Below are positions 13,645 to 32,198 of a stretch of 64,000 nucleotides of DNA, piece after piece. The stretch's first letter is position 1; each line of letters starts with the position of its first letter. Under the pieces are notes generated by a model, which worked only from the letters and a program-made list of their open reading frames with translations, did no database searches and was not told the DNA's origin. Position numbers and translations under genes: made by a program. The DNA comes from Thermodesulfovibrionales bacterium (GTDB lineage Bacteria; Nitrospirota; Thermodesulfovibrionia; Thermodesulfovibrionales; SM23-35), in contig JASEEX010000004.1 in the NCBI GenBank assembly GCA_030019415.1, positions 196-64,195 of the forward strand, in the 5' to 3' direction.

Positions 13645-13791
13645 AAATAATAATAAACTATAAAACAGCCATCCAATTTAGTCAAATTTTAAGCATCAAG
13701 GAACTTGCCTTAGGACTATCAATCTTTCAATAGTGCCATTATAACTTTAAAACCCTTGATATATTTGTTAGAATTATTTAAGGAGATTATC

Positions 13792-16026
13792 GTGAATCGA
13801 ACAAAGGGTATTAAGTATTTTTGGAGTCGACTATTAGCCTTCTCTTCAAGGTCAATTTTTGACTTCAATATAGAACATTTAAAGAAGATGGTTATTGTTG
13901 GCACGCCTCTTTTACTCATTATTACCTTATTAATCGGCTGGTTGTCTGCAAGGAAGGTCAGGGAAACAGTGGTTAAAGACTTCAACCAACAGCAGTTACT
14001 CCTCGCAAAACATGCCGCCACTCAGATAGAAGATAGCCTTAACCATTTGAAGAGGGAGCTGTCTCTCCTCAGTCTTTCACCATCCATACAATACAAAGAG
14101 TCAGCCTTTATGGATAAAAGAATGGATATCGCCTTTTTAAGTATTAAGGATAAAGGAGGAGTGGAAATAAGATTTATAGATATCAAGACCCATATGGTGG
14201 ATGACCTTGGATACAGGAGTGTAAGTCCTTCTCGTGAAGACATATATTATCTGGGGTGGGCAAAGAGGGAAGAAAATAAAGGCCATATACTTATATGCGA
14301 TATTTTTGGGAGGGATTATGGAGATAATTATAAGAGACCCATGACGAGGTTGGTTATACCAGTCTGGCAGGTCTCTGTGGATGAGTCACATCCCGTAGCA
14401 CAAAATAAATTTTCCGGGGCCTTAATGTTCCTCGTTGATGCTACTGAATTAACAGGAAAAGTTACAAAAGGAATACAGTCCGGGAAAACAGGATATGCAT
14501 GGGTGGTTGATAGAAAAGGCATCTTTCTTTACCATCATGAAAAAGATTTTATCGGCAAAAATGCCTTTGAAGTACGAAAAGGGAAAATGCCCTCTATATC
14601 CTTTACAAGGATTAATGAGATCCAGAAAGAAAAGATGTTAAAAGGTAAGGAGGGGACAAGCTGGTATATATCTGGATGGCATAGAGGGCAAGAGGGTAAG
14701 ATCAAAAAGCTGATTGCCTATGCACCTATTAGATTAGACGATACCAATAAGGCCGAAAATATCTGGTCTGTGGCAGCAGTAGCACCTATAAATGAGGTTG
14801 AGGGTACTATTCGGGGAATACAGATTGGACAATTTCTGCTTGAGGGCGTTGTTGTTTTTGGGATACTTTCTGGGGGTTTTTTGATATTCAGCATATTGCT
14901 TAAATGGTCAATTGTTTTGAAAAAGGAAGTTGAAGAAAAGACTAAAGAACTCAGGAAATCCGAAGACCTGTACAGGTCCCTTGTGGAGAATGCAGAGGAT
15001 ATCATCTTTACAGTGGACAGGGAGGGTAAGTTTCTCTCTATGAACAGATATGGTTACAATTTTTTAAACAAAGGACACGAGGACATTATGGGCTTCAACA
15101 TTGCAGAACTGTTTCATGATGAAGAAGCTGGCCTTCAGTTGAAAACAATAGAAAGGGTCTTTGAAACCAATGTAAGCAGGAATTTAATCAGCAAGGTCAG
15201 AGTGAATGGGTCTGAACACTGGCTCAGCACAATCTTCAGCGGACTCCAGGACGAAAATGGAAATGTCATTTCCGTACTGGGAATCGCAAGAGACATCACA
15301 GAAAGAAAGAAGGTAGAAGAGCAGATGTACCACACTGAAAAACTGGCATCAGTGGGAACAATGGCTGCTGGTGTGGCACACGAGATAAACAATCCTCTGG
15401 CGATAATTCTCGGATTTACAGAGATGCTGACAGAAAAGGTGCCTCAAGACTCCGAATTTTATGAGATATTAAAGACTGTAGAGAAACAAGGTCTTAATGC
15501 TAAGAGGATTGTGGAAAATCTTCTCAGCTTTGCACGCTTTTCAGAGCCTAAGGAAGAAGAAGTGGATATAAATGAGAATATCGAGGCGGTGCTTGCTGTT
15601 GAAGGTAATACCCTCACACTCAACAATATTTTCGTAGAAAGAGATATAGCGGAATCCCTGCCAATGGTTAAAGGAGACCCGGGTGAAGTCCAACAGGTCT
15701 TCTTCAATATAATCAGTAATGCCATTTCAGCCATGAAAGGAGGCGGAATCCTGAAAATCGTTACAAGGGCTGTAGATGGCGGAAGGAGTGTTGAGATAAG
15801 GATTTCAGATACAGGTTGGGGGATTAAAAAAGAGCACAGGGCAAAGATATTCGACCCATTTTTTACAACCAAGAAAGTTGGCGAGGGCACTGGACTAGGA
15901 CTCACCATATCATATGCACTTGTTACTAAACATGGTGGATCAATTACTTTTGAAACAAAGACAAAAGAGGAATCAGAGAAGACAGGGACGACTTTTATAA
16001 TAACCTTGCCAGCAATTAAAAAATAG
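13792..16026 (+). CDS. Sensor histidine kinase (TM - Cache-like periplasmic domain - TM - PAS - HisKA - HATPase)
   Basis: H-box AAGVAHEINNPL, N/G boxes (ISNAI.A, DTGWGI, GTGLGL) and a PAS segment (DIIFTVDREGKF...ARDITERK). A GTG start at 13792 lies 6 nt after AAGGAG; the longer track ORF (13756) is less likely. Confidence 0.85.
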   Translation: MNRTKGIKYFWSRLLAFSSRSIFDFNIEHLKKMVIVGTPLLLIITLLIGWLSARKVRETVVKDFNQQQLLLAKHAATQIEDSLNHLKRELSLLSLSPSIQYKESAFMDKRMDIAFLSIKDKGGVEIRFIDIKTHMVDDLGYRSVSPSREDIYYLGWAKREENKGHILICDIFGRDYGDNYKRPMTRLVIPVWQVSVDESHPVAQNKFSGALMFLVDATELTGKVTKGIQSGKTGYAWVVDRKGIFLYHHEKDFIGKNAFEVRKGKMPSISFTRINEIQKEKMLKGKEGTSWYISGWHRGQEGKIKKLIAYAPIRLDDTNKAENIWSVAAVAPINEVEGTIRGIQIGQFLLEGVVVFGILSGGFLIFSILLKWSIVLKKEVEEKTKELRKSEDLYRSLVENAEDIIFTVDREGKFLSMNRYGYNFLNKGHEDIMGFNIAELFHDEEAGLQLKTIERVFETNVSRNLISKVRVNGSEHWLSTIFSGLQDENGNVISVLGIARDITERKKVEEQMYHTEKLASVGTMAAGVAHEINNPLAIILGFTEMLTEKVPQDSEFYEILKTVEKQGLNAKRIVENLLSFARFSEPKEEEVDINENIEAVLAVEGNTLTLNNIFVERDIAESLPMVKGDPGEVQQVFFNIISNAISAMKGGGILKIVTRAVDGGRSVEIRISDTGWGIKKEHRAKIFDPFFTTKKVGEGTGLGLTISYALVTKHGGSITFETKTKEESEKTGTTFIITLPAIKK

Positions 16027-16114: not shown

Positions 16115-16534
16115 ATGCCTGAGAAGATATTAATAGTAGATGATGAACCAGATATGTTGAGGCTTCTAAGTATGATAATAAGGGAGAAGACTCCTTATGA
16201 GGTCACAACCACCAATAACCCTCTTGAGGCCCTCGAATTGACCAAAAAAGGAGGGCTTGACCTCCTTATCGCAGACTTAAAGATGCCGGGGCTAAACGGG
16301 ATAGAACTCCTTGAGTCTGTTAAGCGCTTTGATGAGGATATCCCTACAATTATCATCACAGCCTATGGCACCGTTGAAGCTGCTGTCGAGACAATGCAAA
16401 AAGGCGCCTTTGACTTTATAACAAAGCCCTTCAGGAAGGAGCAGATACTTTTTACAATAGAAAGGGCACTGAAGTGGATAAGGCTACAGAGGGAAAATAA
16501 GATGTTGAAAGAACAATTAAAGAGTGAAGTTTAA
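16115..16534 (+). CDS. Stand-alone response regulator receiver (CheY-like)
   Basis: Motifs ILIVDDEPDM, DLLIADLKMPG.NG and FDFITKPF; 139 aa with no output domain. Confidence 0.9.
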   Translation: MPEKILIVDDEPDMLRLLSMIIREKTPYEVTTTNNPLEALELTKKGGLDLLIADLKMPGLNGIELLESVKRFDEDIPTIIITAYGTVEAAVETMQKGAFDFITKPFRKEQILFTIERALKWIRLQRENKMLKEQLKSEV

Positions 16535-16617
16535 AGGTTTAATGGTTTAATGATTTAAGGGTTCAAGGTTTAACAGTCAGTAACTTTTAAACTTTAAACT
16601 ATTCAACTTTCAACCTT
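16535..16617. repeat. GTTTAAAGG/GTTGAAAGTT short-period repeat block (right of the response regulator gene)
   Basis: aggtttaatggtttaatgatttaagggttcaaggtttaac...aactttcaacctt. Its last 15 nt encode the C-terminal ...VES* of the convergent gene. Confidence 0.55.
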
Positions 16618-19161
16618 TATTTTTAGGTGTTCTCTTATGAATTCTTCCATATGTAATTCAGTAGTGGCATCATCATGCATGATTGCATCCAGTTGTTTAG
16701 TGTAGACTGTTAGTCTACCTAAAACTTCTAATTTTTCTTTAAGTTGTGACTTTTTATACTTCGTGATAATAGCATCGATGACGTCTTCTGTAACCTTTAC
16801 ATCAAAATCAATTTTTTTGAGTATCTCACTAATGAGCTTGACCCTTCTCAATCTCCTCTCTCTACTCGCACCACCCCCCTTGAAAAAGAACCTGATGTAA
16901 TTGTCATTTATGTTTTCCCCTGTATATGCCTCGATTACGGAAAGATGATAGCCAAGTCTTATCGAGAAATTCATATATTCCCTGGAGATGAAAGAGAAAC
17001 TCTCCTCCCCTATCCGCTCAAGCTCTACCTCTGGTATTGCGGCAGTTTCTGCAATCATTCCTAAGAATCCTTTGACATCGACGTGCCTCGGCCCCGGCCA
17101 TTCCAGTGAGATAAGACCTTTGAGAAAGGCATTAAAAGATACTGAGCTAATGTATTCAGGGGTAAGTTTTTGGGGAGCACCTTTAATGCCTCCGCCTAAA
17201 TCGATGAGATATACGAGAAGGGGTATGCCTGCTACAAGTCTAATCCTCTCAACATCTTCTGGTAATTCCTCTGAAATCTTGAACATCTCCTGCATTGCCT
17301 TCTGATGGGCAAAGCGCGTTATATCGTGCAGGGTTTCACAGAATTCAGGTTTAAACCGCTCATCCTCAGGATCTACTAAATTCAGGGGAACGATCCACCT
17401 CAGTACTTTTTCGAAAGTTTTGAAGAGCCGCGTGCCCTTAAAAGGCTCTTCCTTTTTTTCTGCAAATTCTTCCAGCTCCTTCACGTGCCCTTCATAGATA
17501 TTGCAATTTATTGCATCTACAGTTATTTCCTGGCCATTTCTCAGAATCACTGTGGCGACCCCGGTATCGAAAATAGTTGGTATCTGGAACTCCCGAGCTA
17601 TCGTTGCTAAATGAACTGTAGTCCCTCCAACATCTGTGATAATTGCGCTTGCCTTGTTCATAACAGTGACATACTTTGTAGAGGTATGTTTTGCCACAAG
17701 CACAGCACCTTCAGGGAAGTTCTCCAGATCCTCCTCTGTCCTGACAATATAAGCCTTCCCAAAGCCTATTCCTTTGCAAACAATTATACCTTTGTCGATC
17801 AGGATGTTGTATCCAGCGACATGAATAGGAACCGGCCTAGTTGGTTCTCTTGTAAGGATCATCAGTGGCCTGGTCTGAAGTATATAAGGCCTGCCATCTT
17901 TATCTATTGCCCATTCAATATCCTGTGGAGATTTATAGTGATTCTCGATAGCGATGGCATACTCAGCAAGGGATTTAATCTGTTCATCACTCAAGCTGGG
18001 TTTTCCCTTTATCTCTTCAGGTAAAGGGACCTCTTCCACCTCCCCATCAGGTCTACATATAAGCATACTTTTTTGCTCCGGGACTGTCCTTTTGATTATC
18101 TCTAATGGATGTATTGACAAAACATATGTTTCAGGGGTTACTACTCCTTCAACTATGTACTTTCCCAGGCCACGGACAACGCTGATAATAAGGGTATCGG
18201 CCTTTGGATTATTGGGATCTCTCGAGTACATTACCCCTGCTGCCTTTGCATCTATCATTACAACGACACCTACAGACATAACCATCTCATATTCATGTAA
18301 CCCTTTTGTCTTGTAATAGAATATGGCCCTGGGAGTAAAGAGGCTTGCTATGACCTCTTTGTATCTCTGGGGGATTAGATCAGGAGGTACGTTAAGGAAG
18401 GTAGAGTATTGTCCTGCAAAACTGAACTCCCCGTCTTCAAGGAGTGCACTGCTCCTTACAGAGACCATAACCTTCTTGCCATATTTATCGTAGAGCCTTG
18501 AGTAGGCATTCCGTATCTCTCTTTCAATATCATATGGAATCTCGGCCTTTATAATCTGTTCCTGAAGCTCACGGCTTTTACTGTTCAGCACATCAAGGTT
18601 GTCAACCGGAAGCTTAAATAATACCTTGTTTATCCTTTCAACTAACTCATTGTGCTCCATGAACCTTTTAAAGGCAAAAGCGCTTATAGCAAAGCCCTCA
18701 GGTGTGGGTATCCTGAGATGATTCCTTACTTCTCCGAGGTTGGCATTTTTATTTCCCAGACTATCTGTCATTTCCCTTGTGATTTCGTCAAAAGGTATAG
18801 TATAGCTGCTGACAGGAATCTCTTTTCTCCTGGCTAGGAACCTTTCTATTTCTGAATAAATCATATTGAATCTATCGTATAGATTGTGGTATTTCTCCTC
18901 TGAGATTTCATTCAGTTTGTCCACAATTTTCCTTACATTCTCACCGATAGCCATGATAGTGTTTATATAGGGTCTGTCGATGAGAAATTCGCCTGATAGC
19001 TTTTCCTCCATATCTGCCATTAGTTCAAGGACAGAATTATTTTGTGATAGCAGTTCATGAAAAGAATGGAATTTTTTAAGTAAAAAGGCTCTGCCACTTT
19101 CTATTTCTTCCCTGGGCGCCGGCTTTCTTAAAATTCCTGAAAGTTGCTTCCAAAGTCTCAT
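16603..19161 (-). CDS. PEP-utilizer-like phosphotransferase, paralogue 1: helical N-domain + PPDK_N-type ATP-grasp + swivel phosphohistidine domain + unassigned ~320-aa C-domain
   Basis: GNKNANLGEV, VSVRSSALLEDGEFSFAGQY, DIEWAIDKDGRPYILQTRP and AIITDVGGTTVHLATIAREFQIPT. The C-terminal part lacks recognisable PEP/pyruvate TIM-barrel motifs. Confidence 0.75.
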   Translation of the reverse strand: MRLWKQLSGILRKPAPREEIESGRAFLLKKFHSFHELLSQNNSVLELMADMEEKLSGEFLIDRPYINTIMAIGENVRKIVDKLNEISEEKYHNLYDRFNMIYSEIERFLARRKEIPVSSYTIPFDEITREMTDSLGNKNANLGEVRNHLRIPTPEGFAISAFAFKRFMEHNELVERINKVLFKLPVDNLDVLNSKSRELQEQIIKAEIPYDIEREIRNAYSRLYDKYGKKVMVSVRSSALLEDGEFSFAGQYSTFLNVPPDLIPQRYKEVIASLFTPRAIFYYKTKGLHEYEMVMSVGVVVMIDAKAAGVMYSRDPNNPKADTLIISVVRGLGKYIVEGVVTPETYVLSIHPLEIIKRTVPEQKSMLICRPDGEVEEVPLPEEIKGKPSLSDEQIKSLAEYAIAIENHYKSPQDIEWAIDKDGRPYILQTRPLMILTREPTRPVPIHVAGYNILIDKGIIVCKGIGFGKAYIVRTEEDLENFPEGAVLVAKHTSTKYVTVMNKASAIITDVGGTTVHLATIAREFQIPTIFDTGVATVILRNGQEITVDAINCNIYEGHVKELEEFAEKKEEPFKGTRLFKTFEKVLRWIVPLNLVDPEDERFKPEFCETLHDITRFAHQKAMQEMFKISEELPEDVERIRLVAGIPLLVYLIDLGGGIKGAPQKLTPEYISSVSFNAFLKGLISLEWPGPRHVDVKGFLGMIAETAAIPEVELERIGEESFSFISREYMNFSIRLGYHLSVIEAYTGENINDNYIRFFFKGGGASRERRLRRVKLISEILKKIDFDVKVTEDVIDAIITKYKKSQLKEKLEVLGRLTVYTKQLDAIMHDDATTELHMEEFIREHLKIKVES

Positions 19162-19228
19162 TTTCTAATTCCTAATTTTGAGAGACAGGTAAAACGAATA
19201 GAAATGTTATGTTATCTAAGTGAGGTTC

Positions 19229-21793
19229 TTATATCTTCCCTTTAATATGCTCTTTGACGAAGTCTTCTATATACATGTCAGTAATGGCATCATTGTACAT
19301 GACCATGTCCAGTTGTTTAGTATAGGCTGTCAGCTTGCCCAACACCTCTAACCGTTTTTCAATCGCAGGTTTCTTATATTTAGTTATACTGGCATCTATG
19401 AGGTCTTCAACCACTTTTACATTGAAGTCCAGCCGTTTGAGTATTTCCGATACCAGTCTAACCCTCCTGAATCTCCTATCCCTTCCGGCCCCTCCACCTT
19501 TAAAGAAAAACCTTAAATAATTGTCATTTATGCTTTCTCCTGCATATGCCTCAACTGTGGAGAGATGATAGCCGAGTCTTATGGAGAAATTCATATATTC
19601 TCTTGTGATAAAGGAGAAACTCCTATCGCCAATTCTGTAGAGTTCTCCCTCAGGGATGGTTGCGGTATGGGCTACCATGCTCATGAAGCCTTTGATATCA
19701 AAAGGTCTCGGTTCAGGCCATTTCATGGAGGTAAGGCCGTTGCAAAAGGCGTTAAACGGAATAGAGTAAATATATTCAGGGGTAAGCTTTTTAGGAGCAC
19801 CTTTAATACCCCCACCTAAATCGATGAGATATACTTCCATGGGGATAGGGGCTACAAGTCTCGGGGAGTCACTAACCTCAACCTCCTGAGAGGGTATCTC
19901 CGTAATTGTGAACATTTCGCGCATTGCCATTTCATGGCAGAAGCGAGTTATATCATGTAAAGTCTCGCAGAATTCGGGTTTGAATCCCACGTCTTCGGGG
20001 TCAACTAAATTCAAGGGTACAACCCATTTTAAAACTCCCTCAAGTGTCTTAAAGAGTTGTGTGCCCTTAAGGGGGTCTTCCTTTATTTCTGCAAATTCTT
20101 CCAGTTCCTTTACATGTCCTTCATAGATATTGCAATTTATTGCATCTACTGTTATCTCCTGTCTATCTTTAAGGATCTCTGTAGCAATTTCTGTATCGAG
20201 AATGGTGGGAACCTGAAATTCCCTGGCCAATGATGCCATATGACCTGCAGTCCCTCCAACATCTGTGATAATTGCGCTTGCCTTGTTCATAACAGTGACA
20301 TACTTTGCAGAGGTGTGTTTTGCCACAAGCACAGCACCTTCAGGGAAGTTCTCCAGATCCTCCTCTGTCCTGACAATATAAGCCTTCCCAAAGCCTATTC
20401 CTTTGCAAGCAATTATACCTTTGTCGATCAGTATGTTGTATCCAGCGACATGAATAGGAACCGGCCTAGTTGGTTCTCTTGTAAGGATCATCAGTGGCCT
20501 GGTCTGAAGTATATAAGGCCTGCCACCTTTATCTATTGCCCATTCAATATCTTGAGGGGACTCATAATGATTTTCGATAGCTATAGCGTATTCAGCGAGA
20601 GTTTTGATCTCTTCTTCACTCAGTGAGGGCTTTCCTTTCATTTCAACAGGTAAAGAGACTTCCTCTATCTCCCCATCAGCTCTACATACAAACATGGCCT
20701 TCTGCTCCGGGATGTTTCTTTCAATTATTTCTAAATTATCTCTTGATAAAACATAGGCTTCCGGGGTTACCACTCCTTCGACCACGCTTTTACCGAGACC
20801 CCGGGCTGCGCTGATGATAAGGGTATCTTCCTTTGGCCTGTTTGGGTCTCTTGAATACATTACCCCCGCTGCCTTTGCATCAATCATTTCAAGGACGCCT
20901 ACAGACATGACCATATCATGTTCATGTAGGCCCTTTGTCTTGTAATAAAATATTGCCCTCGGCGTAAAAAGGCTTGCTATAACCTCTTTGTATCTCTGGA
21001 GGATCAGGTCAGAAGTTACATTAAGAAATGTAGCGTATTGCCCTGCAAAGCTAAACTCCCCATCCTCCTGGAGGGCACTGCTCCTTACAGAGACCATTAC
21101 CTTCTTACCATATTTATCGCAGAGCCTTGAATAGGCATACATTATCTCCCTTTCAAGTTCCTGGTGAATCTCGGCCTTCATGACCAGATCCTGAATCTCG
21201 AAGCTTTTATTATTCAACACTTCAAGGTTGTCTAACCGAAGCTCAAATAGTGTCCTACGTATCCTTTCAAAAATCTTATTGTGCTCCATGAACCTTTTAA
21301 AGGCAAAAGCGCTTATAGCAAAGCCCTCAGGTGTGGGTATCCTGAGATGATTCCTTACTTCTCCGAGGTTGGCATTTTTATTTCCCAAGCTGTCTACAAT
21401 CTCTTTGGTGATTTTATCAAAGGGTATGGTATAACTGCTGAGAGGGATCTCCCTCCTTCTGGTTAGAAGTTTCTCTATGTTTGAAACAACGCCAAGGAAT
21501 CTTTCATGCAAGGCGAAAAATTTATTGTTTGAGATTTCATTCAGTCTATCTATAATGATTTTGACTCCTTCGGCAATTTCCGAGATTTTCTGGTTTATGT
21601 AGTGCCTGTCAAAGAAAAACTCTCCTGATAGCTTTTCCTCCATATCTGCCATTAGTTCAAGGACGGTATTGTTGTTTGAAAGTAATTCCTGGTAAAGCTG
21701 GTATCTCTTTTTGAGGAGCTCCCTTTTGTCCTCTTTCTGTTCCTTAACTGTTGTGTTTTTTTTCTTCCCCAAGAATTTCGGAAGGTATTTCAT
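19229..21793 (-). CDS. PEP-utilizer-like phosphotransferase, paralogue 2 (same architecture)
   Basis: Colinear with 16603-19161 at a constant offset of 2629 nt. The swivel motif is GGTAGHMASLAREFQVPT. The conserved C-terminal block is REYMNFSIRLGYHLS..EAY.GE.INDNY.RFFFKGGGA. Confidence 0.75.
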   Translation of the reverse strand: MKYLPKFLGKKKNTTVKEQKEDKRELLKKRYQLYQELLSNNNTVLELMADMEEKLSGEFFFDRHYINQKISEIAEGVKIIIDRLNEISNNKFFALHERFLGVVSNIEKLLTRRREIPLSSYTIPFDKITKEIVDSLGNKNANLGEVRNHLRIPTPEGFAISAFAFKRFMEHNKIFERIRRTLFELRLDNLEVLNNKSFEIQDLVMKAEIHQELEREIMYAYSRLCDKYGKKVMVSVRSSALQEDGEFSFAGQYATFLNVTSDLILQRYKEVIASLFTPRAIFYYKTKGLHEHDMVMSVGVLEMIDAKAAGVMYSRDPNRPKEDTLIISAARGLGKSVVEGVVTPEAYVLSRDNLEIIERNIPEQKAMFVCRADGEIEEVSLPVEMKGKPSLSEEEIKTLAEYAIAIENHYESPQDIEWAIDKGGRPYILQTRPLMILTREPTRPVPIHVAGYNILIDKGIIACKGIGFGKAYIVRTEEDLENFPEGAVLVAKHTSAKYVTVMNKASAIITDVGGTAGHMASLAREFQVPTILDTEIATEILKDRQEITVDAINCNIYEGHVKELEEFAEIKEDPLKGTQLFKTLEGVLKWVVPLNLVDPEDVGFKPEFCETLHDITRFCHEMAMREMFTITEIPSQEVEVSDSPRLVAPIPMEVYLIDLGGGIKGAPKKLTPEYIYSIPFNAFCNGLTSMKWPEPRPFDIKGFMSMVAHTATIPEGELYRIGDRSFSFITREYMNFSIRLGYHLSTVEAYAGESINDNYLRFFFKGGGAGRDRRFRRVRLVSEILKRLDFNVKVVEDLIDASITKYKKPAIEKRLEVLGKLTAYTKQLDMVMYNDAITDMYIEDFVKEHIKGKI

Positions 21794-21912: not shown

Positions 21913-22073
21913 ATGAATAAAGGGACATTTAACAGCTAAAGGTCTTTAAATTGTCATTGCGAGGAGTCCCGAAGGCATTCGGGACGACGAACAATCTAAA
22001 AATCATACAAAAACAAAGAGATTGCTTCACCCGCCCTGGGCGGACTCGCAATGACACTTAGATCCTTTATTCA
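21913..22073. repeat. Nested palindromic element (TGTCATTGCGAG type)
   Basis: tgtcattgcgag (21952-21963) pairs with ctcgcaatgaca (22045-22056). The outer pair is tgaataaagg/cctttattca. Inner hairpins are gtcccgaaggcattcgggac and ccgccctgggcgg. Confidence 0.55.
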
Positions 22074-22108: not shown

Positions 22109-22137
22109 TTGACAAGATAGAATTCAACCATTAGAAT
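22109..22137 (+). promoter_or_regulatory. Putative sigma70-type promoter of the gntR-led cluster
   Basis: TTGACA (22109-22114), a 17-nt spacer, then TAGAAT (22132-22137). Confidence 0.4.
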
Positions 22138-22152
22138 TTTCTCCGTTTATTA

Positions 22153-22199
22153 GTTATAATGATATAACATTTTTTAAAAATTATTCATAATGATATAAC
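22153..22199. promoter_or_regulatory. Two operator-like sites sharing ATAATGATATAAC, 31 bp apart
   Basis: gttataatgatataac (22153-22168) is a perfect 6-4-6 palindrome, and ttcataatgatataac (22184-22199) is a half-degenerate copy. Both lie between the promoter and the gntR ATG. Confidence 0.4.
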
Positions 22200-22207: not shown

Positions 22208-22969
22208 ATGGAAGAATTAATTCGTAGAGAAAATTACCAAAAGCTTTATGTACAGCTCTGCGAAATAATGAAGAGAAAGATAGAAAATAAGGAATGGGAT
22301 GTGGGTTTTCAAATACCAACGGAGGAAGAGCTTTGTAAAATCTATGGTGTTAGCAGGGCAACTGTGAGGACTGCCATCTCAGAACTTGTTAGAGAAGGTT
22401 ATCTCACCCGCCAGCAAGGTAAAGGGACCTTTGTTAAGAAGCAGATGTCCGACGAACTTATTATGTCAACAAGTTTTCGTGAGCTTATGCTTGAGCAAGG
22501 GATTTCCTTCTCAACCGAGGTTCTTGCCCACACAACAATGATGCCTATGGACAATTTGATTACCTTGCTTGATTGTCCAGCAGATAAACATGTTATTTAT
22601 ATAAAAAGGACAACTATTGTTGAGGGCAGGCCTATTATGGTTCAGGAAATATATATACCCTTTCACATATGTCCACCACTGTTGGAAGAAGATATTGTTA
22701 ATAATTCTCTTTTTGGGCTCTTTAAGAAACATAAGGTAGATATTACACGGATAAGAAACTATTTTGGTATTACCTATCTCAGCCCTGAGGAAGCTCAAGT
22801 TTTTAGTTTGGCTGAAGGTTCATCCACCTTATTATTAAATCAGCTTTTCTTCTCAGGAGAAACGCCAGTAATGTATACACGTTCAATTAAAAGGTCTGAT
22901 AGTTTTGGGTTCTCAATAGAGTTCAAAAAAAGTTCTATCAATGAGAGGAGGTATTATGTCAAACGATGA
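22208..22969 (+). CDS. GntR-family transcriptional regulator (HutC-like, UTRA effector domain)
   Basis: The wHTH is IPTEEELCKIYGVSRATVRTAISELVREGYL.RQQGKGTFV. The C-terminal ~150 aa are UTRA-like. Confidence 0.85.
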   Translation: MEELIRRENYQKLYVQLCEIMKRKIENKEWDVGFQIPTEEELCKIYGVSRATVRTAISELVREGYLTRQQGKGTFVKKQMSDELIMSTSFRELMLEQGISFSTEVLAHTTMMPMDNLITLLDCPADKHVIYIKRTTIVEGRPIMVQEIYIPFHICPPLLEEDIVNNSLFGLFKKHKVDITRIRNYFGITYLSPEEAQVFSLAEGSSTLLLNQLFFSGETPVMYTRSIKRSDSFGFSIEFKKSSINERRYYVKR

Positions 22970-23019: not shown

Positions 23020-23541
23020 ATGCAGAGTGATAAAAAAATAAAAGATGTGATGATAGGTATCTTTGAGTATCCTCACATACCCTACTGGTTTTCCATTGAC
23101 CAGGCCATACGGATTATCAAGGTCTCATTTATCAGCGCTAAAAAATATCCTGAACCTCTGGCGATACTGGTATTTGACGAAAAGTATAACCTTCTCGGCA
23201 CATTGACCCTGAAGGATATTCTGAGGGGGCTTGAACCGAGATTTATGAGACCGACAGAAAAAGCACAGCCCTATTTAGAAGAAGAGAAGGAACTCTCTGT
23301 TATCTGGGATACCCTTTTTGCCAAGGAATCAAGAGAGCTGGCAAAGAAGTCTGTGAGCGAGATCATGGCTCCTACTAAGGTCTTTGTTGAACCTGATGAC
23401 CCTATTGCTAAAGCAGCATATCTGATGATTCACCACGATCTGGTTTTATTGCCTGTCTCAGAGGAAAAAAAGAAGTTTGTTGGTCTCGTAAGGATGACGG
23501 AGGTATTTGATGAACTGTCCAACGCAATTTTGAAGGAATAA
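23020..23541 (+). CDS. CBS-domain pair protein
   Basis: Two CBS-like repeats (IKDVM...LLGTLTLKDILRGL and VSEIMAP...FVGLVRMTEVF). Confidence 0.75.
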   Translation: MQSDKKIKDVMIGIFEYPHIPYWFSIDQAIRIIKVSFISAKKYPEPLAILVFDEKYNLLGTLTLKDILRGLEPRFMRPTEKAQPYLEEEKELSVIWDTLFAKESRELAKKSVSEIMAPTKVFVEPDDPIAKAAYLMIHHDLVLLPVSEEKKKFVGLVRMTEVFDELSNAILKE

Positions 23542-23556: not shown

Positions 23557-25080
23557 ATGGAAGAAAAAAAGGATGAAAAGATTATAGCACCTGGGTTACC
23601 ACCACCGCCAGAGGAGATAGTAGTTGCAGTTCCGAAAGTCAAGATTGACTGGAAGAGGATATTCTTCATCTTATTGGGTTTAAGCCTTTTTTTTGTTATT
23701 TATTACAGTCCTCCATGGCCTGATGCAGTCGACCCCCTGGGAAAGCATTTTCCTTTACCCAAAGAGGGAAAAGCAGCTATAGCATTGTTCCTCATGGCAG
23801 GCATTTGGTGGGTATTTGAGGTTATCCCAATTGGAGCTACAGCTATTGCTATTGGTCTGTTTCAGGCATTATTTGCTATTCGGCCTGCAAAAGAGGCATT
23901 CAAAGACTTCTTCGACCCTTCTGTCTGGTTTATCTTCAGCTCGGTAGTGATCGGTCTGGCATTTACAAAGACAGGGCTCACAAAGCGTCTCGCTGTCAAA
24001 ATGCTTGGAATTGTAGGAGAAAAAACAAGCATGATCTTGTTAGGGTCATTAATTGTTGTTGCAGGACTTGCCCTCGTCATGGCCCACACCGCTGCAGCAG
24101 CCACTGTTTTCCCTATACTCCTTGCTGTCTATGCCCTGTATGGAGAAGGAGAGAAAAAGTCAAAGTTCGGTAAAGCCCTTTTTATTGGTATGGCATATGC
24201 AGCAGGTGCTGGAAGCATTATCACATATTTAGGTGCGGCCCGTGGACCTGCAGCAGCAGGTATGTTCAAGGAATTCACAGGAAGGGAAATGGGATTCTTC
24301 CAGCTTCCCCTGTATATGTTTCCGATAGCAGCCATCATGATCTTAGCAATATGGGTTTGTTTAATGATATTCTTAAGACCAGAGAAAAAGACTATCCCTG
24401 GTCTCAAAGAAAAGGTAAAGGAGCTTGCAAAAGAAATAGGGCCTATGACCGGACCCGAAAAGTTTGTTATTGTTACTGTTTTACTCGTTGTCACCCTCAT
24501 GGGATTACAGGCCTTTGTCCCTGCCTTAAAGACAATAGACAGGGCTGCAATTATGTTGACCGGAACACTTATCTTCTTTCTGTTCAGGATATTGACAATT
24601 AAGGAACTGGAAGATATGCCATGGAACATTATCCTTCTCTTCGGAGGAGCAATAAGTATCGGTTTTTGCCTCTGGAAATCAGGAGGAGCACAGTGGCTTG
24701 CAATAGAGTGGCTTGCTATGTTTAAACAAGCACACTGGCTTATGTTTGTATTGAGTGTTGCATTTTTTGTCCTTGTAACGACTAATTTCATCATGAACGT
24801 TGCTGCGATTGCCCTTTCATTGCCCATTTCTCTTGTTATTGCAAGTTATATGGGTGTTGCTTCCGAAGTAATAGTCTATGCATCACTTGTTACAGCCGGG
24901 ATGCCATTCTTGCTTGTGATTGGAGCAGCTCCGAATGCTATTGCCTATGGCTCAGGGCAATTCAGTACAGGGGAATTTTTCAAATATGGCATAATTCCGT
25001 CTATTATTTTGATGTTTGTTCTTGGAGCAGCAATCTATTTCCTCTGGCCAATTTTGGAAATGCCGGTTTTGATTAAGTAG
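23557..25080 (+). CDS. SLC13/DASS-family anion permease
   Basis: A 507-aa polytopic protein with duplicated hairpin-type segments (AIALFLMAGIWWVFEVIP..., GAAPNAIAY) typical of DASS/ArsB-NhaD superfamily permeases. Confidence 0.75.
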   Translation: MEEKKDEKIIAPGLPPPPEEIVVAVPKVKIDWKRIFFILLGLSLFFVIYYSPPWPDAVDPLGKHFPLPKEGKAAIALFLMAGIWWVFEVIPIGATAIAIGLFQALFAIRPAKEAFKDFFDPSVWFIFSSVVIGLAFTKTGLTKRLAVKMLGIVGEKTSMILLGSLIVVAGLALVMAHTAAAATVFPILLAVYALYGEGEKKSKFGKALFIGMAYAAGAGSIITYLGAARGPAAAGMFKEFTGREMGFFQLPLYMFPIAAIMILAIWVCLMIFLRPEKKTIPGLKEKVKELAKEIGPMTGPEKFVIVTVLLVVTLMGLQAFVPALKTIDRAAIMLTGTLIFFLFRILTIKELEDMPWNIILLFGGAISIGFCLWKSGGAQWLAIEWLAMFKQAHWLMFVLSVAFFVLVTTNFIMNVAAIALSLPISLVIASYMGVASEVIVYASLVTAGMPFLLVIGAAPNAIAYGSGQFSTGEFFKYGIIPSIILMFVLGAAIYFLWPILEMPVLIK

Positions 25081-25122: not shown

Positions 25123-25494
25123 GTGGATAAGATAAGCAGTGTGGAAGAGCTCAAGGTTTTTAAAAGGAGCCATGAGTTTACTTTAAATATTTACAGGATT
25201 ACTAAACAGTCCCCACAAGCCGAAAAGTTTGGCCTTGTAGCACAGATGAGAAGAGCAGCAGCTTCTATTGGTACGAATTTATTGGAAGGCAGTCATAGAT
25301 TAAGCAGAAAGGAATTTCGTCAGTTTGTTGGTATTTCTAAAGGTTCTGCAGGTGAATTGAAATATCACTTGCTGCTTGCAAAAGATCTGGGATATTTACC
25401 AGAAAGCGAATATTTTATCTTAAGAACAGGGGTTGATCAGATTAGCATGATGCTCAACGGCTTAGCTAAATCTTTAACTGACACTAAACACTGA
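25123..25494 (+). CDS. Four-helix-bundle protein (23S rRNA intervening-sequence protein family)
   Basis: F.LNIYRITK.....EKFGL..Q.RRAA.SI..N..EG........F..F..IS.GS..E...HL.LA.DLGY is the family pattern. A GTG start lies after GAGAGGAGG. Confidence 0.85.
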   Translation: MDKISSVEELKVFKRSHEFTLNIYRITKQSPQAEKFGLVAQMRRAAASIGTNLLEGSHRLSRKEFRQFVGISKGSAGELKYHLLLAKDLGYLPESEYFILRTGVDQISMMLNGLAKSLTDTKH

Positions 25495-25512: not shown

Positions 25513-26256
25513 ATGGCCTTTGAAGATGTCCTCTGCAAGTACTTCGACAGGGTTTATACCGAGGTCGATTTTGTTCAAAAAACATACAATGCTTTAAAAA
25601 AAATCGGCTTCACTGGTGATAATGCCATAGCCTCTGTTTGTGTCTGCAGGGATGAGATCTCACAATCCGTGCGGAGCATTATAAAACATATATGGGGAGA
25701 AGCGTTTAATCTTTCGAGCCTTGCAGGGATGTTCTTTGCTGGCAGAACTGCCCTCATGGCTGAAATGCATCATGCCCCTGTTGTGGAAGGCAAGGAACGT
25801 TATGTCTATTATGCCTTACCTCATACAGCAACCAGTCCCGAGGGCCAGATAGGAGTTTGTAAGCGGAAGGGCAGAGAAGGGGAATCTACCGCATGCGGTG
25901 CCCTGAGTGCCTTTCAGAAGGAGATGGCCACAATTAGTTCAAAGTTGAAAGTTGAAAGTTTAAAGTTAAATAACAAAATTGACAATGATGATATTGAAAT
26001 GAGCCTTATAAGAATGCGTTTGGTTAAGGAAATCCCATATGGTCATGTTCCAGACCTCCTTGAGTTAACAAAGATAGCACAGAAGGTTATCCAGGCAGAC
26101 CTCGAAAATGCACTAAAGGCTATTGTTGATACGAAGAAGTGTGATTATGCTGTCATGACAGGCATACAGATAAATGGACCTGACGGTAACTACATCGCCC
26201 CTGTATCGACTTATGGTGTTGTGAGTGGTGTTAGACAGGAGGTGAACTTAATTTAA
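25513..26256 (+). CDS. LCIB/LCIC-like protein (beta-carbonic-anhydrase fold), putative
   Basis: Ordered motifs SVCVCRDEI, WGEAFNLSSLAGMFFAGRT, MHHAP, YYALPHTA and GESTACGAL match my recollection of the LCIB family Cys-His-Cys zinc-site pattern. This has not been verified by a search. Confidence 0.5.
   Translation: MAFEDVLCKYFDRVYTEVDFVQKTYNALKKIGFTGDNAIASVCVCRDEISQSVRSIIKHIWGEAFNLSSLAGMFFAGRTALMAEMHHAPVVEGKERYVYYALPHTATSPEGQIGVCKRKGREGESTACGALSAFQKEMATISSKLKVESLKLNNKIDNDDIEMSLIRMRLVKEIPYGHVPDLLELTKIAQKVIQADLENALKAIVDTKKCDYAVMTGIQINGPDGNYIAPVSTYGVVSGVRQEVNLI
25936..25974. repeat. In-frame GTTGAAAGTT-type low-complexity insertion inside the LCIB-like ORF
   Basis: agttcaaagttgaaagttgaaagtttaaagttaaataac encodes SSKLKVESLKLNNK. 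The same repeat flavour occurs at 16033-16617 and 26256-26300. Confidence 0.55.
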
Positions 26257-26319: not shown

Positions 26320-26799
26320 ATGAGATATATCATTACATTTCTCCTACTTTTTTTGAACTGGGTAATATGGTCAGGCATGTTAGATGCCTTTCACCTCTCT
26401 TTGGGAGTTATTTCCTGTATTCTCGTAACCTATATGACCCATGATATTTTATTCAAACGTGAAAAGTTCTCCTCCAAACATATAGTAGAAGTAATCCGGT
26501 TTATTAAATATATACCTTGGCTTTTATACCAGATCTTTCTGTCTAATATTCATGTTGCCTCCCTGGTTCTGAATCCCAAGATGCCCATTAAACCTGAATT
26601 AATAAGATTCAAGACTAAACTAAAAAAGGATATTTCCTTGACAACTTTTGCCAACTCTATCACCCTCACCCCTGGTACCATAACCGCGGATATTATAGAA
26701 GGAGAATTCTATGTTCATGCCCTTAGCAAGAAGGTTGCAGACGATCTCCTGGCAGGTGAGATGGAAAATAGGGTAGCTCATATATTTATGGAGGATTAG
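26320..26799 (+). CDS. mrpE: Mrp/Mnh antiporter-type subunit E
   Basis: TM N-terminus with W..W.G.... and the TLTPGTITADI motif. Confidence 0.8.
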   Translation: MRYIITFLLLFLNWVIWSGMLDAFHLSLGVISCILVTYMTHDILFKREKFSSKHIVEVIRFIKYIPWLLYQIFLSNIHVASLVLNPKMPIKPELIRFKTKLKKDISLTTFANSITLTPGTITADIIEGEFYVHALSKKVADDLLAGEMENRVAHIFMED

Positions 26800-27105
26800 A
26801 TGGAAAATTTCTTTTTGGCAATCGGTCTGATTTTGGGTTTTCTGGTTTTGCTCTGTCTCTATCGTGGAATATTCGGACCAACGGTTTTGGACAGAATAAT
26901 AAGTATTAGTGTTATTGGCACCAAGACCACGATTATCTTAGCCCTCATGGGCTTTATCTATGGAAGAATGGATATGTTTGTGGATATCTCCATAGCATAT
27001 GCCTTATTAAATTTCATTGCGACCCTGGCTGCTGCAAAATTCTTTCGTACGAGGAAAAGCATAATTCCAGGGGCAAAATACTTTAAAGAGAGGGAAGTTA
27101 AATAA
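26800..27105 (+). CDS. mrpF: Mrp/Mnh subunit F
   Basis: GPTVLDRIISISVIGTKT and DISIAYALLNFI, with 3 TM helices. It abuts mrpE directly. Confidence 0.8.
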   Translation: MENFFLAIGLILGFLVLLCLYRGIFGPTVLDRIISISVIGTKTTIILALMGFIYGRMDMFVDISIAYALLNFIATLAAAKFFRTRKSIIPGAKYFKEREVK

Positions 27106-27432
27106 ATGTCTATTTTAGCCATAATTTTTATCTTGACAGGGGTTTTTTTCTTTACAACAGCAACTATAGGGCTTCTACGTTTTCCTGATTTTTATTGTAG
27201 GATGCAAGCTACTGGAAAAGGCGATACTCTTGGAGCACTTCTTTCACTTACAGGTTTGGCATTATACAACCTGCATCATGGATTTTCACTGCCAACAATA
27301 CTTGTGAGCATTAAGATAATGTTCATTGCTATTTTTATCTTTGTAGCAAACCCTACTTCTACCCATGCAATTACAAAGTCAGGGTTGGACTGCGGTGTTG
27401 AGCCTTTTACAAAGGAGGAGGTAATCAGATGA
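27106..27432 (+). CDS. mrpG: Mrp/Mnh subunit G
   Basis: GLLRFPDFYCRMQATGKGDTLGA is the MnhG signature. Confidence 0.85.
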   Translation: MSILAIIFILTGVFFFTTATIGLLRFPDFYCRMQATGKGDTLGALLSLTGLALYNLHHGFSLPTILVSIKIMFIAIFIFVANPTSTHAITKSGLDCGVEPFTKEEVIR

Positions 27433-27674
27433 TCTGGCAATTAGATATTATTATCCTCATCATCGTTGTTATCAGTGCTATAGCTGCTATAACTGTAAAG
27501 GATCTCTTGAGTTCAGCCATTCTCCTTGAGGCATATAGCTTCCTTATGTGCCTCCTCTGGACAGAAATGGGCGCAGTAGATGTTGCCTTTACCGAAGCTG
27601 CTGTGGGAGCTGGTATTAGTACAGCGTTCTTTATTGGTGCCATATATCAAACGACCAGGAGGACAAAGGATTGA
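27429..27674 (+). CDS. MrpB-N/MbhD-like small membrane subunit (DUF4040-like)
   Basis: An 81-aa, 3-TM protein with AVDVAFTEAAVGAGIST. Its start overlaps the mrpG stop by 4 nt. Confidence 0.65.
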   Translation: MIWQLDIIILIIVVISAIAAITVKDLLSSAILLEAYSFLMCLLWTEMGAVDVAFTEAAVGAGISTAFFIGAIYQTTRRTKD

Positions 27675-27940
27675 GGTTTTTTGCACTAATTGTTGTTCTC
27701 ATAACAGGTACCCTGCTTCTATATGCCACAGTAGACATGCCCGATTGGGGCGATCCCTACTCTCCTGCTAACACCCATGTATCACCCAGATATATAGAAA
27801 AGACGATTGAAGAGACGGCAACACCAAACATAGTCACCTCAGTACTTGCAGATTACAGGGGCTATGATACCCTGGGTGAGACTACGGTAATCTTCACAGC
27901 AGGAGTTGTATGCATACTTCTCTTAAGGAGGTTTAAGTGA
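27671..27940 (+). CDS. MbhE-like small membrane subunit
   Basis: NIVTSVLADYRGYDTLGETTVIF is typical of MnhB-related subunits. The TTG start overlaps the preceding stop (TTGA). Confidence 0.6.
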   Translation: MRFFALIVVLITGTLLLYATVDMPDWGDPYSPANTHVSPRYIEKTIEETATPNIVTSVLADYRGYDTLGETTVIFTAGVVCILLLRRFK

Positions 27941-28392
27941 CTATAGAATTTAAAGATGTAATCATACAGACCATTTGCAGACTTCTTACACCACCCATTC
28001 AGCTTTATGCCTTGTATGTAATTGCTCATGGACATTACAGCCCCGGCGGGGGTTTCCAGGGAGGTTGTATTCTTGGAGCAAGTTTTATCCTGATGGTTAT
28101 TGCCTATGATATAGGAGAGGTAAAAAGGCGGATGGCTGAAAAAATGAATACCATATTTTGCAGTCTCGGAGTGATTATATACTCGGGGATTGGTGCAATA
28201 TGCCTGATACTCGGCGCAAATTATCTGGATTATGGCATACTTCACAAAATTCTGCCTGTAAATCCTGTAAGGGCCAGAGCCCTGGGAACTCTGGGCATTG
28301 AGATCGGAGTAGGGATTGCGGTAATGGCTGTTATGATTTCTATCTTTCTTAATATCGCCTCAGGAGGCGAACACGAAGGAGCATTGGAATAA
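27937..28392 (+). CDS. mrpB: Mrp/Mnh subunit B (MbhF-like)
   Basis: The HGH.SPGGGFQGG motif; the GTG start overlaps the preceding stop (GTGA). Confidence 0.8.
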   Translation: MTIEFKDVIIQTICRLLTPPIQLYALYVIAHGHYSPGGGFQGGCILGASFILMVIAYDIGEVKRRMAEKMNTIFCSLGVIIYSGIGAICLILGANYLDYGILHKILPVNPVRARALGTLGIEIGVGIAVMAVMISIFLNIASGGEHEGALE

Positions 28393-28799
28393 TGGGGACT
28401 ATAGAATTCATTATCAGTAAATATAATTACTGGATTTATGTGCTACTTATGATGATAGGATTCTACGCCATGATAGCAAAGAGAAATCTGGTAAAGAAGA
28501 TTGTAGGAATGAATATATTTCAGACAGCTATAATACTTTTTTTTGTTTCTACCGGTTCTAAGAAGGGTGCCAGCATACCTATCATTCAGAATGGACATGG
28601 AGATGTTGTAAGTCATGCGGTGAATGCTGCCCAATATGTGAATCCCTTACCCCATGTACTCATGCTTACAGCCATTGTGGTTATGGTAAGCACTTTTGGA
28701 GTTGCCCTGGCATTGATAATCATGATTTATAGAAAATACGGAACCTTAGAGGAAGATGAAATTTTTGAAATGTCAGAAATTTTAAGGCTGAGAAAATGA
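28392..28799 (+). CDS. mrpC: Mrp/Mnh subunit C (NuoK-like)
   Basis: NLVKKIVGMNIFQTAIILFFV; 3 TM helices with an insert. Confidence 0.8.
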   Translation: MGTIEFIISKYNYWIYVLLMMIGFYAMIAKRNLVKKIVGMNIFQTAIILFFVSTGSKKGASIPIIQNGHGDVVSHAVNAAQYVNPLPHVLMLTAIVVMVSTFGVALALIIMIYRKYGTLEEDEIFEMSEILRLRK

Positions 28800-30292: not shown

Positions 30293-30304
30293 TTTTACTT
30301 TTTG

Positions 30305-30435
30305 GTCATTCCCGCGCAAGCGGGAATCCAGCCCCGTGTTTAATACGGAGCGTTACTGCGAAAGCAGGGAACTATACAAAGAAAATTGATTCCTGCTGGA
30401 TTTTATCCCGTACCAAGATACGGGGCAGGAATGAC
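30305..30435. repeat. GTCATTCC...GGAATGAC palindromic element between two mrpD genes
   Basis: gtcattcc (30305-30312) pairs with ggaatgac (30428-30435). Inner pairs are gggaatccag/ctggatt and ccccgt/acgggg. Same family as 7008-7091. Confidence 0.6.
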
Positions 30436-30458
30436 AGATGGAGGAACATTAGGAAAAA

Positions 30459-31952: not shown

Positions 31953-31988
31953 GGAAAAAACACGAGAAAAAAGATAGGAGGATAAACA

Positions 31989-32117
31989 ATGCATGAAGAA
32001 GGAGAAGAAATAATGGAACTCACACATGAGCCTGTACCAATATACAGGAAGATATTTTTTATAGCGGTTATAATTGGTGCTCTATATCTCGGGATTATCT
32101 TTTTGAATACGTTTTGA
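31989..32117 (+). CDS. Unlisted 42-aa single-TM ORF
   Basis: ATG at 31989 lies 8 nt after AGGAGG. It translates to MHEEGEEIMELTHEPVPIYRKIFFIAVIIGALYLGIIFLNTF*. It is below the ORF-track size cut-off. Confidence 0.4.
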   Translation: MHEEGEEIMELTHEPVPIYRKIFFIAVIIGALYLGIIFLNTF

Positions 32118-32148
32118 GCAATATAGCAAACGCATTAAATACTTTTAT

Positions 32149-32178: not shown

Positions 32179-32198
32179 CATATTGAGGAGATATAGAA

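Follow-up and report, generated by a model that had tools for sequence, protein, structure and literature searches.

Tandem genes for PpsA-derived phosphotransferase-like proteins with a candidate acceptor module, located among signalling and anion-transport genes of a Thermodesulfovibrionales bacterium

The window analysed here, i.e. the whole 64,000-nucleotide stretch from a Thermodesulfovibrionales bacterium (GenBank:JASEEX010000004.1, positions 196 to 64,195), carries two adjacent open reading frames (ORFs) on the minus strand, ORF A and ORF B, which a preliminary description had taken for tandem paralogues with an ATP-grasp, a swivelling phosphohistidine domain and an unassigned acceptor domain. 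Both reading frames were uninterrupted and had the coordinates and strand given there, and their products, two paralogues as proposed, were 73% identical and 85% similar from end to end. The order of domains in both was N-terminal helices, ATP-grasp, swivel His and C-terminal domain (C-domain), as listed below.

16603-19161, minus strand: ORF A, PpsA-like dikinase paralogue, 852 residues (ORF list, translation, Pfam)
18802-19161, minus strand: ORF A N-terminal helical segment, residues 1-120 (AlphaFold2 model of a short-form relative)
17848-18765, minus strand: ORF A PPDK_N ATP-grasp (PF01326), residues 133-438 (Pfam, E 2.1e-92)
17512-17718, minus strand: ORF A swivelling phosphohistidine domain (PF00391), residues 482-550 (Pfam, E 6.6e-20)
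17611-17613, minus strand: ORF A codon of the catalytic His517 in motif GGTTVH (codon verified)
16606-17439, minus strand: ORF A alpha/beta C-domain, residues 575-852 (AlphaFold2; conservation over 436 sequences)
17305-17340, minus strand: ORF A helix 608-619, CETLHDITRFAH, candidate site meeting the phospho-His (covariation; coordinates verified)
19229-21793, minus strand: ORF B, paralogue of ORF A with the same architecture, 854 residues (ORF list, translation, Pfam)
20141-20347, minus strand: ORF B swivel domain, residues 483-551 (Pfam, E 1e-19 to 1e-20)
20240-20242, minus strand: ORF B codon of the catalytic His518 in motif GGTAGH (codon verified)
19232-20068, minus strand: ORF B C-domain, residues 576-854, with helix C609-H620, H743 and G766-G768 (alignment)

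In ORF B, PPDK_N covered residues 134-439 (Pfam, E 1e-94). The motifs from which a PpsA/PPDK-type nucleotide-binding region and a swivel His had been read were present, and Pfam assigned them to PPDK_N and PEP-utilizers. No Pfam domain was found in residues 1-120 and ~565-852 even at E≤10, so that the C-terminal part without assignment amounts to ~290 residues and not to the ~320 estimated earlier. A further remark, that this part contained only one Cys, holds for ORF A past residue 555 (C608, conserved in 98% of the family), whereas the corresponding stretch of ORF B contains three (C609, C619 and C684). The ORF A product was 100% identical to a protein (P0121) of a Thermodesulfovibrionales metagenome-assembled genome (MAG), and the NCBI name of both products is the generic "PEP/pyruvate-binding domain-containing protein". 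ORF B was 81% identical to the copy at another locus (L013), and ORF A was 73% identical to the downstream copy at a third one (L008); the split between A and B is thus older than the divergence of the species.

Over residues ~120-570, the closest relatives were PpsA proteins (E 1e-110 to 1e-118), with which the ORFs share the ATP-grasp and swivel in the same order, including the catalytic His and the nucleotide-site motifs; the catalytic His was found in 193 of the 195 full-architecture members scored. The two differ in that the ORFs have no phosphoenolpyruvate (PEP)/pyruvate-binding TIM barrel, possess an extra 120-residue N-terminal helical segment tied to a C-domain of ~290 residues, and lie in a genomic setting of signalling and transport genes. 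The best NCBIfam matches, the PpsA models PRK06464 and TIGR01418, aligned only over positions ~5-478 of 798 and scored 371-397 bits, below their cut-offs of 598 and 740, and the PpsA chains in the PDB (including 2ols, 9dae and 8a8e) aligned to ORF A only up to residue ~573. Pfam matched PPDK_N and the mobile domain in both ORFs, but the profile of the TIM barrel (PF02896) had no match in either at E≤10. In agreement, the AlphaFold2 model of the C-domain was a beta-meander/alpha structure and not a (beta/alpha)8 barrel, and Foldseek searches of the PDB retrieved no PpsA, PPDK or EI barrel. The absence of a barrel, as deduced in the preliminary description, is thus upheld, and the profile searches did not return the pair to the ordinary PpsA enzymes.

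The same ATP-grasp and swivel His occur in rifampicin phosphotransferases (RPH) and the related YvkC and PigC-RedH proteins (NF041857, NF052631), which pass the phosphate to a non-pyruvate acceptor on a lineage-specific domain; use of such domains shows that the cassette of ATP-grasp and swivel is reusable. In the RPH type, however, the acceptor domain is central and the swivel C-terminal, whereas in ORFs A and B the swivel is central (residues 482-550) and precedes the C-domain, with ~300 residues following it, a difference already pointed out from the letters. The RPH, PigC and RedH models matched only the ATP-grasp and swivel of the ORFs, with 203-245 bits versus cut-offs of 945-1350 (213 versus 999 for NF041857; 203-226 versus 1300-1350 for the PigC and RedH models), and substrate domains of the RPH type were not among the Foldseek matches of our models. 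Membership in the RPH/YvkC/PigC group was rejected on the basis of domain order and these scores.

A search with residues 564-852 alone yielded 233 relatives, some of them proteins of ~390 residues without any Pfam domain, in which the N-terminal helical segment was fused straight to the C-domain and both ATP-grasp and swivel were missing. Among the retrieved sequences there were 16 distinct short forms of this kind (382-412 residues), and three occurred in the fetched loci, in addition to medium forms of ~540-560 residues (N-segment, swivel and C-domain) and one form with N-segment, ATP-grasp and C-domain. Since natural proteins consist of just these two parts, the N-helices and the C-domain are one module (hereafter the N+C module), and the cassette of ATP-grasp and swivel is an insert in it. 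Therefore, the "unassigned acceptor domain" is correct insofar as no library recognizes the C-terminal region, but not as a separate domain. AlphaFold2 modelled a short form with a mean pLDDT (predicted local distance difference test score) of 85.5 and a pTM (predicted template modelling score) of 0.79; it had three long N-helices (pLDDT 91-98), in line with the ~120-residue helical N-terminus described previously, followed by more helices, an antiparallel meander of four strands together with a helix and a hairpin, and a pair of long helices at the C-terminus. The C-domain of ORF A modelled alone gave a pLDDT of 80.6 and a pTM of 0.74. The pLDDT of its first ~70 residues was 44-72 when modelled alone and 85-98 in the N+C model, a drop which suggests that the N-helices pack on the first helices of the C-domain; the two models were built from different sequences and alignments.

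Profile searches of Pfam, NCBIfam and PDB sequences gave no match for the C-domain, and Foldseek searches of the PDB with the N+C and C-only models gave nothing at E<0.001, with TM-scores normalised to the query not exceeding 0.26; higher values, obtained on normalisation to target length, were limited to short partial targets (helical bundles, C-Ala fragments). The remote-homology and structure-prediction searches suggested for this region thus revealed neither a TIM barrel nor a confident fold match. The top Foldseek match was a DHH-family PAP phosphatase (8a8k; E 2.9e-3, probability 0.93, TM ~0.2, root mean square deviation 11 Å), and weak matches to RecJ, GAN, Cdc45, the C-Ala domain of AlaRS and arginine kinases recurred. 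The C-domain has a KGGGA loop but no DHH motifs and no sequence-profile match to DHH/DHHA1 proteins, and with fold matches this weak, the resemblances to DHH/DHHA1 proteins and to phosphagen kinases were not used. An H-box-like helix (HDITRF) and a G1-like loop (IDLGGGI) had prompted a reading of the C-domain as a degenerate histidine-kinase core (DHp and GHKL); this found no support, as hhalign gave probabilities of 0.2-0.3% against the kinase in the window and against a profile built from the kinase neighbours of family members in 87 loci, the latter aligning only over a 17-residue DxGxGI-like stretch, and HisKA, HATPase_c and Hpt had no match in the family protein at E≤10 (Pfam). Internal duplication and an origin of the C-domain from the ATP-grasp, swivel or N-segment were rejected (hhalign probability ≤0.3%). 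The profile of the N-segment matched, among PDB sequences, only designed coiled coils and HA2, which is a compositional match, and just six short, uninformative matches were found for it in other architectures. Mean-field direct coupling analysis of the N+C columns (effective number of sequences ~196) was discarded because gap artefacts at domain boundaries dominated the top pairs.

An exhaustive search with a profile hidden Markov model detected 1,429 clusters (50% identity) at E≤1e-3 and 735 at E≤1e-30, and 2,274 homologues at E≤1e-10 were among the 8,000 candidates scored. At least 593 relatives were present in GTDB species genomes, mostly in Nitrospirota (Thermodesulfovibrionia, Dissulfurispiraceae) and Thermodesulfobacteriota (Desulfobaccales, Syntrophobacterales, Desulfomonilaceae); all but one of the best 80 loci of GTDB relatives were labelled as MAGs. 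Tandem pairs of family genes were common, and every one of the 150 representatives listed had the C-domain at its C-terminus except P0380, in which ~220 more residues follow it. Databases name the relatives "pyruvate, water dikinase" or "phosphoenolpyruvate synthase". As to whether the region belongs to an already characterised phosphotransferase family, no library matched it and our literature search found no paper describing this PpsA-like N+C family. Judged by their sequences, ORF A and ORF B appear to belong to a large uncharacterised family of PpsA-derived dikinase-type phosphotransferases.

Alignment of 436 C-domains revealed that C608, H612, D613, R616, H619, G682, W688, H739, N754, G762-G763, R769, R772, R773, D793, Q823 and D825 (ORF A numbering) were conserved in at least 93%. 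The family signature consists of a CxxxHDxxRxxH helix, RLGYH, KGGGA-x3-RRxRR and D793/D825 together with the N-terminal helical segment, and both ORFs carry all of it. The complete sequences were then divided into 263 with the swivel catalytic His and 30 without it, the latter having no swivel or a Tyr or other residue in its place. H612, R616 and H619 were each present in 263 of the 263 sequences with the His and in 24, 7 and 10, respectively, of the 30 without it, and R616 and H619 were the most class-discriminating columns of the entire C-domain. H739, R769, R773 and D793, in contrast, were retained in all 30 His-less sequences and were near-invariant, with rare conservative changes, in the others (R769 in 253 and D793 in 260 of 263). 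Medium forms with the catalytic His keep both R616 and H619; the largest clade with a His-to-Tyr change (P0246, L040-L054) lost both, and P0086 lost R616 only. This pattern indicates two putative functional sites, namely 1) helix 608-619, which would be tied to phosphotransfer and, since H612, R616 and H619 are invariant with the swivel His and relaxed without it, may be the site meeting the phospho-His, and 2) a second set of residues with a role not needing phosphotransfer. The covariation with the catalytic His appears to be the strongest evidence for an acceptor domain, and it lends support to the earlier view of the pair as probable ATP-to-His-to-acceptor phosphotransferases.

The His-to-Tyr members are medium forms without ATP-grasp, with GSATGYMA at the swivel site (L040, L046, L049, L050, L054, e.g. 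L054:9221-10852, as well as P0246 and P0086), each with histidine-kinase genes beside it, and have the look of dedicated pseudo-enzymes within the family.

The genes surrounding ORFs A and B in the window, all on the plus strand, were as follows.

13756-16026, plus strand: sensor histidine kinase with dCache_1, PAS, HisKA and HATPase_c, AtoS-like in NCBIfam (Pfam)
16115-16534, plus strand: single-domain receiver of NtrC type, 139 residues, with D10, D54, T82 and K104 (Pfam, NCBIfam)
22208-22969, plus strand: GntR/UTRA regulator, divergent from ORF B (Pfam, NCBIfam)
23020-23541, plus strand: CBS-pair protein (Pfam, NCBIfam)
23557-25080, plus strand: DASS anion:Na+ symporter (Pfam, NCBIfam)
25123-25494, plus strand: 23S-rRNA-IVP protein (four-helix bundle, bAvd-like), inserted between the DASS and LCIB-like genes (Pfam, NCBIfam)
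25513-26256, plus strand: LCIB-like protein of beta-carbonic-anhydrase fold (Pfam, NCBIfam)

The receiver gene is convergent with ORF A and encodes a canonical acceptor pocket. The arrangement read from the sequence, i.e. convergent with a Cache-PAS histidine kinase and a stand-alone receiver and divergent from a GntR-led cluster, was confirmed by these assignments. For a survey of neighbours, ORFs were called in 87 loci of family members and clustered without prior labels; 46 of these loci were fully flanked, with at least 3 kb on both sides. The recurrent neighbours were receivers (54 of the 87 loci), sensor kinases (54), a 173-residue CBS-pair protein (44), DASS symporters (35), GntR/UTRA regulators (31), TauE/TSUP transporters (23), universal stress proteins (Usp; 21), the LCIB-like protein (16) and a small membrane protein (15). 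In the fully flanked loci, a histidine kinase lay within 6 kb in 33 and a receiver in 35, a two-component gene lay within 3 kb in 36, DASS or TauE lay within 6 kb in 34, and at least one of the two kinds, two-component or transporter, was found in 43. Recurrent neighbour families made up 5-11% of the ORFs within 3 kb, dropping to 0-7% at 6-10 kb, and the adjacent receivers were mostly single-domain proteins of ~140 residues. The typical order in Nitrospirota was DASS, CBS, (LCIB, DASS, CBS) and GntR, then divergently one or two copies of the PpsA-like family gene, and beyond it, convergently, receiver, histidine kinase, Usp, membrane protein and TauE. In Thermodesulfobacteriota, the family gene, histidine kinase and receiver followed each other on one strand in up to three sets per locus, and on an Acidobacteriota contig a short form was divergent from the same cassette of GntR, CBS, DASS and LCIB genes. 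The association with kinase and receiver was also kept by short and medium forms. Mirror-tree correlations with the family protein were 0.77 for CBS, 0.67 for the receiver, 0.57 for GntR, 0.45 for the histidine kinase and 0.30 for DASS, values that are confounded by shared phylogeny and come from differing sequence sets, and are weak evidence. The distribution and neighbourhood survey proposed earlier thus found, in a family of this size, neighbours conserved across phyla: the convergent kinase/receiver pair and the divergent GntR cluster are conserved partners and not incidental neighbours, an indication of signalling or transport control and not of central metabolism.

In Desulfobacteraceae, a 2025 study described genes of a DASS-type sulfate transporter clustered with those for Cache-domain sensor kinases, response regulators, Usp and CBS proteins, and proposed that this cluster controls sulfate uptake in sulfate reducers (PMC11887813). 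The family loci resemble this cluster in having the DASS symporter, CBS-pair proteins, Usp, a Cache kinase and response regulators; they differ from it in that its response regulators are DNA-binding (WalR type) whereas theirs are mostly single-domain receivers, and in that they add the GntR/UTRA regulator and the LCIB-like protein. In addition, receiver-PPDK fusions have been recorded in a census of response regulators (PMC5847659), providing a precedent for receivers acting on this class of enzymes.

Taking these results together, the explanation we consider best, with a confidence somewhat short of even, is that the phosphoryl group would pass from ATP to the swivel His, on to helix 608-619 and from there to an acceptor, within a signalling/transport circuit. 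A PpsA-type cassette of ATP-grasp and swivel would have been inserted in an autonomous N+C module, which replaces the PEP/pyruvate TIM barrel. By analogy with the chemistry of the superfamily, the ATP-grasp would bind ATP and phosphorylate His517 (ORF A) or His518 (ORF B) with release of AMP and Pi. The swivel would then bring the group to the C-domain, and helix 608-619 (H612, D613, R616 and H619) may receive it there or catalyse its transfer, as the covariation with the catalytic His suggests. Finally, the group would be handed to an acceptor in a second pocket, predicted to comprise H739, G762-G764, R769, R772, R773, D793 and D825. The most likely acceptor, in our tentative judgement, is a small anionic metabolite, because 1) the always-invariant Gly-rich loop, three Arg, His and Asp resemble an anion/phosphate pocket, and 2) the truncated forms lose only the "transfer" residues, which is the usual path from an enzyme to a ligand-binding pseudo-enzyme. 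Relatives without ATP-grasp, swivel or catalytic His are probably non-catalytic ligand-binding partners. The circuit would include the sensor kinase, single-domain receiver, CBS-pair protein, GntR/UTRA regulator and the anion transporters (DASS, TauE/TSUP), and the proteins probably have a regulatory role, in which anion uptake or energy status is controlled or reported on, and not one in central carbon metabolism.

Several points weigh against this explanation. The neighbour survey found no conserved nearby gene for a metabolic enzyme using a phosphorylated product, so that a protein acceptor or a pure switch would fit as well as a small molecule: the phosphoryl group may go to a protein, or to no acceptor at all, the phospho-His serving as a switch. 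The 30 His-less members come from few clades, with perhaps 5-8 independent losses, and hence do not represent 30 independent events. The single pocket and the reach of His517 to helix 608-619 are predictions from residue conservation, and the link to sulfate comes from a proposal for related clusters that lists no PpsA-like protein (PMC11887813).

Among the rival explanations, that of an ordinary PEP synthase or PPDK with a C-terminal barrel too divergent to score is highly implausible and was rejected: the database names of the relatives and the affinity of the N-terminal two thirds to PpsA (E 1e-115) are as it would predict, but PF02896 is absent, PpsA models and structures end at residue ~570, the model is of beta-meander/alpha type with no barrel retrieved by Foldseek, and there are an extra N-terminal module and natural N+C proteins without the kinase parts. 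Another rival is a protein phosphorelay. In such a relay the swivel His~P would hand its phosphoryl group to either His612 or His619 in an HPt-like helical bundle, to which both the N-helices and the first helices of the C-domain contribute, and from there it would go to Asp54 of the adjacent receiver, making the protein an ATP-grasp-powered, non-GHKL receiver kinase. It would account for a single-domain receiver of ~140 residues, with its canonical acceptor pocket, being the most frequent neighbour, often on the same strand and in up to three sets with the family gene and kinase, and for the invariant helix His with Arg at i+4 / i-3, kept only when the swivel His is present; transfer from the His of a swivel domain to another His is established for the phosphotransferase system (PTS). 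However, a complete canonical HisKA-HATPase kinase lies beside the receiver, hence no extra donor is needed, Hpt and HisKA gave no signal (Pfam E≤10; hhalign probability 0.3%), and the residues that are invariant even without phosphotransfer (GGG, RxxRR, H739 and D793) resemble a small-ligand pocket and not a docking face. We consider the relay unlikely, and it is similarly doubtful that the pair represents a previously unrecognised kind of ATP-grasp/swivel-His receiver kinase coupling ATP/AMP/Pi status to the control of sulfate/anion uptake.

Rather improbable as well is a phospho-His-dependent switch or energy sensor without a final acceptor, operating by the reversible reaction E + ATP + H2O <-> E-His~P + AMP + Pi, in which His~P docked on H612, R616 and H619 would reshape the N+C module, thereby tuning anion uptake, and the module would bind a ligand or partners such as the receiver, CBS protein or transporter. 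This would suit a neighbourhood consisting nearly throughout of adenine-nucleotide-binding regulators or transporters (CBS, Usp, histidine kinase/receiver, GntR, DASS and TauE) with no metabolic enzymes in it, an N+C module that, by its sequence, stands alone in short forms with the invariant pocket kept, and the high distance-matrix correlations with CBS (r 0.77) and the receiver (r 0.67), although these are confounded by phylogeny. Spending ATP to AMP is, however, unusual for a switch, there is no precedent for one in this superfamily, and the pattern of an Asp-backed His with Arg is equally typical of catalysis. Transfer through helix 608-619 to an acceptor, most likely a small anion, remains the explanation we prefer.

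For such a chain, known systems provide partial parallels. The nitrogen PTS (EI-Ntr/NPr/EIIA-Ntr) is a swivel-His chain whose output is regulatory, acting on sensor kinases and ion transport, and not catabolic. It is a functional analogue only: the PTS uses PEP with a TIM barrel and separate HPr and EIIA proteins, whereas the donor for the ORFs would be ATP via an ATP-grasp, and no HPr- or EIIA-like genes were seen near family members. In the split dikinases, phenylphosphate synthase PpsAB and hydroxyphenylethanone kinase HpeHI (PMC12167813), the ATP-grasp, His carrier and acceptor part can be on separate polypeptides. Likewise, the family includes proteins with N-segment, swivel and C-domain that lack the ATP-grasp but keep the catalytic His (P0244, P0249, P0279); on the other hand, the acceptor modules are unrelated by sequence, no aromatic-catabolic genes lie near family members, and many truncated family forms lack the catalytic His altogether.

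Whereas the dikinase cassette is known, the acceptor module and the signalling context appear to be new. If the interpretation is correct, a new acceptor module joins the enzymes with ATP-grasp and swivel His (PpsA, PPDK, GWD, RPH, PigC and phenylphosphate synthase), and the residues to mutate would be H517, H612, R616, H619, H739, R769, R772, R773 and D793. The labels "phosphoenolpyruvate synthase" or "pyruvate, water dikinase" on the ~1,400 clusters are almost certainly wrong, and metabolic reconstructions of MAGs from Nitrospirota and Thermodesulfobacteriota are distorted as a result, e.g. with regard to the inferred capacity for gluconeogenesis or the reductive tricarboxylic acid cycle. 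The PpsA-like protein would also be a conserved, unnoticed part of the clusters of DASS/TauE, CBS, Usp and two-component genes proposed for the control of sulfate uptake, and its conserved membership would offer a direct handle on the regulation of the first step of dissimilatory sulfate reduction.

Some neighbours deserve separate mention. Of the 87 loci, just 6 had a 23S-rRNA-IVP-like ORF close to family genes (cluster 11), so that this gene falls outside the widely conserved cassette and looks like an insertion. The LCIB-like protein recurs beside the CBS-DASS genes (12 of the 46 fully flanked loci). Hexapeptide repeats form the fold of gamma-carbonic anhydrases. In the DASS/CBS cluster of Desulfosarcina variabilis, a hexapeptide-repeat protein (Dvar_38460) is encoded two locus tags after the DASS symporter Dvar_38430 (PMC11887813). 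Two different carbonic-anhydrase-like folds, LCIB-type and hexapeptide, are encoded beside putative sulfate symporters. A kinase/pyrophosphorylase of the PF03618 family, the regulatory proteins of PpsA/PPDK, was encoded ~8 kb from a family member (L003:20339-21148); it was not a recurrent neighbour cluster, and its Pfam annotation was present only on L003 and on a second contig with the same protein (L004). In PpsA and PPDK, members of PF03618 phosphorylate the Thr at position -2 from the catalytic His; this position is Thr in ORF A (GGTTVH) and Ala in ORF B (GGTAGH).

The intergenic region between ORF B and the GntR gene has a near-consensus sigma70-like promoter (TTGACA-17-TAGAAT) at 22109-22137, ahead of the GntR gene. 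Beyond this promoter, ATAATGATATAAC occurs twice without mismatch, at 22156-22168 and, 31 nt further on, at 22187-22199, with the first copy lying within the palindrome GTTATAATGATATAAC; these are the only two copies in the window, versus 0.15 expected. As a candidate operator of GntR/HutC type, the repeats would serve the divergent promoter region that the GntR gene shares with ORF B. The same region contains an element of ~110 bp (21949-22059) bounded by 15-nt inverted repeats (AATTGTCATTGCGAG and CTCGCAATGACACTT), and a third copy of the core GTCATTGCGAG was found at 32150-32160 in another intergenic gap (3 matches versus 0.5 expected). It looks like a small palindromic element of the miniature inverted-repeat transposable element or repetitive extragenic palindromic (REP) type.

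Directly downstream of the GntR-CBS-DASS-LCIB cassette, an Mrp/Mnh-like multi-subunit cation:proton antiporter cluster extended over 26320-34293, with MnhE-, F-, G-, B- and C-like subunits and three large Proton_antipo_M proteins, followed by a tandem-Usp protein (34350-35231); a small number of related loci also had small Mnh subunits beside the cassette (clusters 9-14, 5-6 loci). Farther along, short and weakly scoring TYW3-like and DNA-methylase-like ORFs (38197-39231) precede an intact gene for a Mutator/IS256-family transposase of 419 residues (39232-40491).

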